This document shows positions 30,819-31,429 of a stretch of 60,120 bases of DNA, piece by piece (within the stretch, counting starts at the first letter, position 1; the number at the start of each line of letters is the position of its first letter). The notes under the pieces were generated by a model that ran no database searches, was not told where the DNA came from, and saw only the letters and a list, made by a program, of their open reading frames with translations. Made by a program: the position numbers and the translations under genes. Origin of the DNA: a virus. Location of the stretch: the IMG/VR virus record IMGVR_UViG_3300020044_003577, positions 1 to 60,120 of that record. One strand, given 5' to 3'.

Positions 30819-30893
30819 TGCGGAGTAGCTCAATGGTAGAGCAGGGGACTCATAATCCCTTGGTCACTGGTTCGATCCCAGTTTCCGCAACCA
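30819..30893 (+). tRNA. tRNA with CAT anticodon (Met, fMet or Ile2; undecided), CCA encoded
   Basis: Hand-folded cloverleaf. Acceptor TGCGGAG/TTCCGCA; D arm GCTC-AATGGTA-GAGC; anticodon arm GGGGA-CTCATAA-TCCCT; T arm ACTGG-TTCGATC-CCAGT; discriminator A plus CCA. Confidence 0.85.
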
Positions 30894-30904: not shown

Positions 30905-30979
30905 AGCGGGATAGCTCAGTAGGAGAGCGCTGGACTCATAATCCAGAGGTCGGTGGTGCGAATCCACTTTCCGCAACCA
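30905..30979 (+). tRNA. second tRNA with CAT anticodon, A1xA72 mismatch, CCA encoded
   Basis: Acceptor AGCGGGA/TTCCGCA (positions 1-72 unpaired); D arm GCTC-AGTAGGA-GAGC; anticodon arm CTGGA-CTCATAA-TCCAG; T arm GGTGG-TGCGAAT-CCACT. Confidence 0.8.
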
Positions 30980-30987
30980 ATTAATTC

Positions 30988-31040
30988 CCCACAAGATCGT
31001 ATCTGTGGGCCGACACCCTCTTTATGGGGGTGTTTCTTTT
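30988..31040 (+). terminator. double hairpin; the second has a T-run (intrinsic terminator candidate after the tRNA pair)
   Basis: Hairpin CCCACA..TGTGGG (30988-31009), then ACACCC..GGGTGT (31013-31033) followed by TTTCTTTT. Confidence 0.5.
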
Positions 31041-31049
31041 AACACCAAG

Positions 31050-31212
31050 ACGCATGGAGATTGTCCTCTGCTTAGGGCTTATAAGCGTTCGAACGGGCAA
31101 GTCAGTCTCCAGCCGTGTTGGTGTCGAGGTTCTAGTCAAACACCTGTCTGCAACAGGAGCGTAAGCAGTAAAACGCCCCAAATCAGATGACAACTGGTTC
31201 ACCAACAACTAA
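31050..31212 (+). ncRNA. structured non-coding unit 1 (unknown class)
   Basis: No credible ORF and GC-rich. It has a 5' box ACGCATGG and stem P1 GGAGATTG/CAGTCTCC (31056-31063 with 31103-31110). A 15-nt box CCAGCCGTGTTGGTG is shared with unit 2. Stem P2 pairs 31116-31123 with 31200-31207, and the unit ends in the box CACCAACAACTAA. Confidence 0.4.
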
Positions 31213-31213
31213 C

Positions 31214-31347
31214 ACGCATGGGAACTGCCAGCAATCGTTAGCCATATGGGGCTTTCAATCGTTGGACAAACAGTTCCCAGCCGTGTTGGTGGTTCCATTG
31301 CAGACTGCGGTGGTAAATTGACTGGGCCAGTAGCCACCAACAACTAA
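31214..31347 (+). ncRNA. structured non-coding unit 2 (paralogue of unit 1)
   Basis: It has the same boxes as unit 1. P1 is GGGAACTG/CAGTTCCC (31220-31227 with 31271-31278), with two compensatory pair changes relative to unit 1. P2 pairs 31284-31292 with 31334-31342. It ends 7 nt before tRNA-Arg. Confidence 0.4.
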
Positions 31348-31354
31348 ACAACAA

Positions 31355-31429
31355 GGGTCATTAGTTCAATGGATAGAACAGTGATCTTCTAAGTCACGAG
31401 TGCATGTTCGATTCATGCATGACCCACCA
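31355..31429 (+). tRNA. tRNA-Arg (anticodon TCT), CCA encoded
   Basis: Acceptor GGGTCAT/ATGACCC; D arm GTTC-AATGGATA-GAAC; anticodon arm GTGAT-CTTCTAA-GTCAC; T arm GCATG-TTCGATT-CATGC; discriminator A plus CCA. Confidence 0.85.

Follow-up and report, generated by a model that had tools for sequence, protein, structure and literature searches.

The stretch of DNA analyzed here, referred to below as the window, comprises 60,120 nucleotides (nt), positions 1 to 60,120 of the IMG/VR virus record IMGVR_UViG_3300020044_003577, and the element in question is an array of two tandem structured non-coding units that lies in its tRNA cluster. The array is located on the plus strand in a 375-nt spacer (30980-31354), which an earlier note had described as G+C rich, free of any credible open reading frame (ORF), and surrounded by tRNA genes. 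All three features were borne out by composition, ORF, ARAGORN, and Rfam analyses. The spacer has about 50% G+C versus 30 to 40% in its flanks, and its ORFs reach at most 75 amino acids and use alternative start codons, none of them being credible. Upstream are a tRNA-Met (CAT) gene (30819-30893; 68.5 bits with the Rfam tRNA model) and a second tRNA-Met (CAT) gene (30905-30979; 62 bits), and a tRNA-Arg (TCT) gene follows directly downstream of the array (31355-31429; 65.9 bits), all on the plus strand and all called by ARAGORN as well. The two CAT tRNAs need not both be elongator tRNA-Met, since one of them may serve as an initiator or be a tRNA-Ile modified with lysidine.

Unit 1 spans 31050-31213 and unit 2, including its tail, 31214-31354, as delimited by sequence and by fold. 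As the earlier note had pointed out, both open with ACGCATGG (at 31050 and 31214), contain a common 15-mer, CCAGCCGTGTTGGTG (31109-31123 and 31277-31291), and share a 13-mer, CACCAACAACTAA (31200-31212 and 31335-31347). The same succession of parts is found in each unit. In unit 1, the 5' box ACGCATGGAGATTG (31050-31063), which includes the 5' strand of the first stem, P1 (31055-31063), is followed by a variable insert, V1 (31064-31102), the 3' strand of P1, CAGTCTCCA (31103-31111), the tetranucleotide GCCG (31112-31115), the 5' strand of the second stem, P2, TGTTGGTG (31116-31123), a second variable insert, V2 (31124-31199), the 3' strand of P2, CACCAACA (31200-31207), and the linker ACTAAC (31208-31213). 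Unit 2 consists of the 5' box ACGCATGGGAACTG (31214-31227; P1 5' strand, 31219-31227), V1 (31228-31270), the P1 3' strand CAGTTCCCA (31271-31279), GCCG (31280-31283), the P2 5' strand TGTTGGTG(G) (31284-31292), V2 (31293-31333), the P2 3' strand (C)CACCAACA (31334-31342), and the tail ACTAAACAACAA (31343-31354).

The pairing proposed earlier was also recovered. P1 is GGAGATTG/CAGTCTCC in unit 1 and GGGAACTG/CAGTTCCC in unit 2, the two differing by two compensatory pair changes and one U.G-to-C-G change, and P2 is TGTTGGTG(G)/(C)CACCAACA; both stems appear in the minimum-free-energy fold of each unit. Compared with shuffled sequences, the whole spacer folds with a z-score of -5.9 and unit 2 with one of -4.1, whereas unit 1 reaches only -1.5. 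A covariance model termed R1, built from sequences trimmed to the conserved core described below, scored unit 1 at 44.2 bits (E = 2e-10) and unit 2 at 57.6 bits (E = 4.5e-14). When run over the entire window, it returned exactly these two units (44 and 58 bits). We also noticed GGGAACTGCCAG at 31222-31233, at the start of unit 2, a sequence identical to the 3' end of helix I of Escherichia coli 5S rRNA; the match may be a coincidence.

The two units turned out to be members of a large family. An exact scan of IMG/VR with the 15-mer gave at least 120 matches, and most of those listed show the full box order, ACGCATGGGGATTG - variable - CAGTCCCCAGCCGTGTTGGTG - variable - CACCAACAACCTA, often arranged head to tail. 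An independent scan with a 14-mer from the 5' end yielded at least 48 further units in which the second box is variable, and a metagenome scan with a 16-mer contributed 59 real cases out of 120 among the matches listed, one of them a TARA Oceans contig. About 170 units were found by model R1 across the fetched loci. In total, there are at least 212 distinct arrays, usually of 1 to 4 units each. Since the homologues were collected with exact core words, the conservation of those words is overstated; the use of two independent anchors lessens this bias without abolishing it. The strongest evidence against a chance origin is that hundreds of unrelated contigs show these boxes with their order preserved. 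The earlier note had made its case depend on homologues with supporting covariation, and these exist in large numbers. It had also failed to assign the units to a known family, and an Rfam 15 scan gave no match to them either, neither at gathering thresholds nor at E <= 10.

Comparison of the members indicated that the conserved part of a unit is a core of about 55 nt only and that the remainder is exchangeable insert, a distinction beyond what the earlier note had drawn. The core, (N)CCAAC-ACGCAUGGGGAUUG ... CAGUCCCCAGCCGUGUUGGUG ... CACCAACAACC, is nearly invariant and folds into the helices P1 and P2, which lie next to each other and close one variable insert apiece, V1 or V2. Among 46 full units, 97.9% of the P1 and P2 cells are paired versus 28 to 55% when the partner strand is slid by 1 to 3 columns. 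Six P1/P2 pairs are changed on both sides, which none of 500 shuffles achieved. Variation is well illustrated by P1 column 9-99, where the counts are GC 30, GU 8, AU 6, CG 1, and UA 1; the middle of P1 is free of search-word constraint. For P2, covariation can be assessed only among the units collected with the 5' box as anchor, and model R1 places the P2 3' strand wrongly when V2 is long, so P2 was analyzed with scripts of our own instead. Deviations in the P2 5' strand are offset by the downstream partner, as in TGTTGGGC/GCCCGACA and TGATGGTG/CGCCATCA, and further compensated pairs are TGTTGGTA/TACCAACA and TGTTGGCG/CGCCAACA. A P2 partner matching at 8 of 8 positions lies within 250 nt in 108 of 148 units, the chance expectation being about 0.1 per unit with the partner picked by complementarity. 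G.U pairs are frequent and tolerated on the gene strand only. These pairs and the compensatory changes are strand specific and place the conserved fold on the gene strand, which argues for an RNA and against a double-stranded DNA site.

Two further pairings involving the leader were considered. A helix between an upstream CACCAA and the P2 5' strand occurs in the minimum-free-energy fold of the spacer; it was rejected, as covariation is unsupportive and the majority of leaders have no such sequence. The leader ACGC could also pair with GCCGU, but these pairs are invariant in the 46 full units, so that covariation is uninformative on them.

V1 ranges from 20 to 111 nt and V2 from 43 to 243 nt. 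In 90 units, the V1 inserts sort into about 69 classes and the V2 inserts into about 66, and these occur in many combinations. Within an insert class, hairpins covary, as seen for the class-1 sequences. Unit 2 of the window is 93% identical over its full length to a unit in contig L058. Unit 1, when compared with a unit in contig L065, is 93% identical in V1 and unrelated in V2, with the break inside the conserved second box. Neither contig has any detectable protein in common with the window. As V1 is shared and V2 swapped at a break in the second box, the conserved core also serves as a recombination joint. The commonest V2 class, present in 14 loci including L065, starts with AAUGCGCAGGCUGAUGCGC, ends with GCCGGAGAUCAGCACCGGC, and has a variable middle of its own. 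Its two hairpin loops, GCUGAU and AUCAGC, are mutually complementary, which suggests a nested kissing-loop fold.

The core stems are akin to tRNA acceptor stems, a point that the earlier note had not raised. With tRNA-Gln of phage T4 taken for comparison, P1 (UGGGGAU.../...CCCCA, then G-C-C) is incompletely similar to the acceptor end of a tRNA of the Gln type, and in most members P2 ends in A-C-C. At other loci, the kinship extends into the inserts: five V2 domains score as tRNA in Rfam (39 to 48 bits), and ARAGORN called tRNAs in one V2 domain (L024) and one P1 domain (L092), both with abnormal anticodon loops. The tRNA-scored domains, found in a minority of members, possess a canonical D-arm and T-arm; P2 or P1 takes the part of the acceptor stem, and either a short hairpin with a 4- to 5-nt loop replaces the anticodon arm or the D-loop carries large insertions. 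In addition, the motif GUUCRAnnC is present in 13 V1 and 16 V2 inserts (29 of the 180 inserts in 90 units), most of which fold as a T-arm-like hairpin. Overall, roughly one-tenth of the inserts score as tRNA, and T-arm-like hairpins are present in roughly one-third. Real tRNAs, chiefly tRNA-Met (CAT), abut arrays in at least 10 loci besides the window; nine of those with an abutting tRNA-Met (CAT) were noted by name (L011, L033, L043, L052, L096, L100, L106, L113, and L116). A tmRNA was not found, since ARAGORN reported none and Rfam gave only an 18-nt fragment match in a single locus (L036). The earlier note had allowed that the region might prove to be a decayed tRNA; its relation to tRNA stands, and its decay does not, the family being conserved and covarying.

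The family is essentially restricted to uncultured phages, as matches in reference genomes and GenBank are close to nil. A core 20-mer matched only 5 stretches in 185,000 reference genomes, all in metagenome-assembled genomes, four of them being short contigs and the fifth lying within a Planctomycetota contig of 322 kb; three of the five are freshwater Burkholderiales. MW202545 and Caulobacter phage GB2A, the nearest GenBank relatives by large terminase, have no unit. In MW202545, an apparent unannotated gap of 1.4 kb reads as coding sequence and contains no tRNA gene.

Most other carriers are phages unlike that of the window, and their array lies upstream of genes for an Sf6-type small terminase and the large terminase, often following an HNH-like DUF968/YbcO gene. 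Overall, the neighbors of arrays are very diverse, and no recurrent protein partner emerged when the window ORFs were compared with all loci and neighboring genes were clustered. In the window and at every locus anchored on the small terminase, units are co-oriented with the flanking genes. Array presence is optional. When loci were sampled without bias by way of the small terminase gene, units were present at 27 of 80, and among phages whose small terminases are 95 to 98% identical, the site is occupied in L315 and empty in L318, L320, and L321. Since near-identical phages have an empty site, the array is an optional cassette and neither a packaging site nor an essential cis element.

The same slot upstream of the small terminase gene holds other inserts elsewhere (L338, 1961-2500; L351, 2131-2500; L374, 1340-1720). 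That in L338 has a sigma-70-like promoter, a hairpin, and a T-run and looks like a small-RNA gene, and those in L351, L374, and L361 contain direct repeats, for example, AATAAGTTTACAGT. Accessory non-coding cargo thus has a hot spot in this slot.

In the window, the region just upstream of the array contains a small hairpin, CCCACA/TGTGGG (30988-31009), which fills part of the gap between tRNA and array and appears in the minimum-free-energy fold of the spacer, a terminator-like hairpin, GACACCC...GGGTGTT, followed by a T-tract (31012-31040; terminator scan), and the leader hexamer ACCAAG (31044-31049), which is part of model R1. Over 170 first units, the leader hexamer is NCCAAC, NCCAAG, NCTAAC, or NCCATC, a stable hairpin lies upstream in 110 and a T-run in 20, and the window has both. 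The terminator-like hairpin and T-tract lie only about 10 nt 5' of the array leader, a distance that leaves no space for a separate array promoter; therefore, expression of the array would depend on read-through or on a polymerase insensitive to the hairpin. The window encodes a T7-type RNA polymerase, DNA polymerase I, a primase-helicase, and ribonucleotide reductase, and its gene blocks converge, with the plus-strand block at 7571-32833 and the minus-strand block at 32882-59903. Some 1.5 kb separate the RNA/tRNA cluster from the end of the plus-strand block, which is that for replication and transcription. Only one fetched locus, L059 (oriented 2-154, 392-2272), is apparently related to the window phage: it has a unit with different inserts directly 5' of a ribonucleotide reductase gene whose product is 62% identical to that of the window.

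With a conserved gene-strand fold, exchangeable inserts, tRNA kinship, and optional presence at hand, we propose that the units are widespread, phage-restricted, modular accessory small RNAs that derive from tRNA, are matured by tRNA enzymes, and act in trans, an explanation whose chances of being right and wrong we judge to be about equal. We infer that the array is co-transcribed with the adjoining tRNAs or genes. Host RNase P would cut on the 5' side of the stems, and RNase Z or exonucleases would cut on the 3' side, yielding stable RNAs of roughly 60 to 200 nt, which could then act in trans as accessory factors in infection. Their most plausible role would be as mimics of the acceptor/elbow half of tRNA or as stabilizing carriers for the variable domains, and their target may be a host tRNA-binding or defense factor.

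Several observations weigh against this proposal. The four inserts of the window itself are not tRNA-like, as Rfam at E <= 10 and ARAGORN were both empty over 31050-31347. The nucleotides that follow the stems, GCC-G, ACC-U, and ACU-A in the window, are only partly NCCA-like, with C74 varying between C and U. In the tRNA-like P1 domains, the acceptor-like helix is 9 to 11 bp, more than 7 bp, and measured against the canonical 12-bp ruler of RNase P, this argues against a single fixed cleavage site. Many units lie 4 to 30 nt from flanking ORFs, which fits a role in cis equally well. Neither the spacer nor the conserved boxes were matched by BLAST in about 50,000 GenBank phages, and there is no cultured carrier. 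Finally, the primary sequence of stems and linker is far more conserved than processing alone requires, and conservation of this degree suggests that a sequence-specific partner may recognize them.

The main rival is that the element is cis-acting intercistronic punctuation, in which the stems recruit RNase P, RNase Z, or a linker endonuclease and the leftover hairpins protect the flanking mRNAs, with no RNA acting in trans. This would agree with units that are often wedged 4 to 30 nt between same-strand ORFs and always co-oriented with genes, with the conserved single-stranded hexamer between helices, and with the hairpin just upstream of 110 of the 170 first units. However, one plain hairpin or a tRNA would suffice for such a purpose, yet the units come in tandem, and their insert classes, which number in the dozens, are individually conserved, covary, and are exchanged. 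Moreover, near-identical phages manage without the element, and the window array stands among tRNAs, not between ORFs. We regard punctuation or stability in cis as unlikely, and the readings that follow are less likely.

A compact, near-invariant core with variable distal stems in head-to-tail arrays is also what a new self-cleaving ribozyme might look like. It would cut the array at the linker, and ligation could follow to give circular dumbbell RNAs, joining ...CACCAACA to ACGCAUGG of one unit. Pairing of the leader with GCCGU would abut P1 and P2 without a linker and so bring the unit ends together. These leader-trailer pairs never vary, though, single units are common, and no Rfam ribozyme class (hammerhead, twister, pistol, hatchet, HDV, and others) was matched, and we consider self-processing improbable.

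Still more improbable is a processive antitermination RNA. The put element of phage HK022 consists of two adjacent stem-loops in the phage transcript and is small, single copy, promoter proximal, and essential for read-through; by analogy, the two hairpins of a unit would bind RNA polymerase for read-through into late or packaging genes. The array element shares the two-hairpin geometry, its stem-loops being 0 to 1 nt apart, units often stand where the packaging operon begins, 5' of the genes for the small and large terminases, and a terminator-like hairpin is near some loci. Nevertheless, that terminator is upstream of the units and not downstream, and the element differs from put in being tandem, in carrying large inserts, and in being optional in near-identical phages. 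It is also present in a phage with a T7-type RNA polymerase and beside unrelated genes.

A role of the boxes at the DNA level, as a pac/cos packaging site, a recombinase site, or a phage promoter, is hardly credible: arrays often occupy the cos/pac position between the HNH-like gene and the small terminase gene and contain conserved inverted repeats, but the strand-specific pairs, the empty sites in near-identical phages, the diverse flanking genes without a recurrent integrase or recombinase, and the G+C-rich composition typical of structured RNA all point away from it, as do the mere two copies in the 60-kb window, which make a phage promoter in particular unlikely. An integron attC site does not fit, since the order GTTGGTG ... 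CACCAAC is the reverse of RYYYAAC ... GTTRRRY on either strand and no integrase is present among the neighbors. Equally hard to credit are decaying tRNA pseudogenes without present function, for despite the likeness to the acceptor, D, and T arms and the adjoining tRNAs, unrelated phages on hundreds of contigs share a near-invariant core, covariation is seen in stems and inserts, and 93%-identical units occur in phages without detectable protein similarity.

Among known systems, the closest analogue of the window units is the pair of T4 RNAs C and D (species 1 and 2; rnaC and rnaD), a resemblance that the earlier note had sensed. In the T4 cluster, rnaD and rnaC follow tRNA-Arg in tandem, the same layout as in the window: two tandem RNAs of about 120 to 140 nt, putative ones in the window, directly beside tRNA-Arg. 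T4 rnaC has a T-arm (GGGUUCGAAUCCC) next to its 3' end. Neither a common core nor exchangeable inserts, the marks of the window family, are known for the T4 RNAs, and homology was undetected, as an unfiltered search of the T4 tRNA region with model R1 gave at best 7.2 bits (E = 0.48), not at rnaC or rnaD. GOLLD and ROOL are phage and prophage RNAs often found near tRNA islands; GOLLD env-38 follows a Met-tRNA, the setting in which GOLLD was first seen, and the variable region of GOLLD can contain tRNAs (PMC12286853, PMC5737381). Like GOLLD, the array family holds tRNA-like bodies in a conserved frame beside tRNA-Met. In contrast to GOLLD and ROOL, which are single RNAs of 600 to 800 nt, array units are 130 to 250 nt, tandem, and modular, and Rfam scans covering these and other phage RNAs, at gathering thresholds (window and 14 loci) and by E value (the region and 17 loci), gave only tRNAs and noise.

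A precedent for tRNA-like architecture without decoding is the bacterial Y RNA-like YrlA, a modular non-coding RNA whose tRNA-like domain has acceptor, D, and T arms (PMC4201824). In the Rfam scan of the region, YrlA gave only a sub-threshold score of 20.9 bits over the real tRNAs, and no Ro60/rsr gene was present among the flanking gene clusters. The proposed mode of the family also resembles the engineered tRNA scaffold, reportedly introduced by Ponchon and Dardel in 2007, in which an acceptor-type stem is said to clamp a structured insert that tRNA enzymes process and stabilize. Being man-made, the scaffold retains the tRNA body in full, whereas in the array family there would be two natural clamps in tandem. 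Guide arrays of the CRISPR or TIGR type do not match, the variable parts being 20 to 240 nt, structured, and conserved as classes, and clustering of the neighbors revealed no recurrent nuclease or effector gene near arrays. The Drum RNA motif, considered for an association with tRNAs, was rejected: its description has terminators following it and a link to DUF3800, and Rfam gave no match.

Our literature searches found no earlier description of the array family. The family is uncatalogued, and its kind, the small RNAs of phage tRNA clusters, is already known from T4, whose stable RNAs C and D date back to the 1970s (PMC3014915, PMC9697503). The family supplies natural variants by the hundred, all with the same fixed core and with domains that can be exchanged, and so offers a comparative handle that the T4 RNAs never gave, and because the family defines the constant nucleotides, it also indicates the likely place of partner binding. 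The element is accessory and horizontally exchanged among unrelated phages, and it ties tRNA-like domains without a normal anticodon loop to one common frame. A bolder extension, which we hold to be quite doubtful, is a natural phage RNA cassette system, in which the acceptor-like clamps would be processing signals, perhaps for ligation or circularization, as well as points of homology for recombination, and phages would display, stabilize, and swap small structured RNAs from a very large repertoire as effectors. If this is true, the effectors could be, for example, decoys for host tRNA-directed or RNA-sensing defense proteins, and the arrays would be the RNA counterpart of protein anti-defense gene islands. 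Should the RNAs act as decoys or carriers, they would constitute an RNA layer of phage counter-defense and a natural scaffold for expressing structured RNAs.
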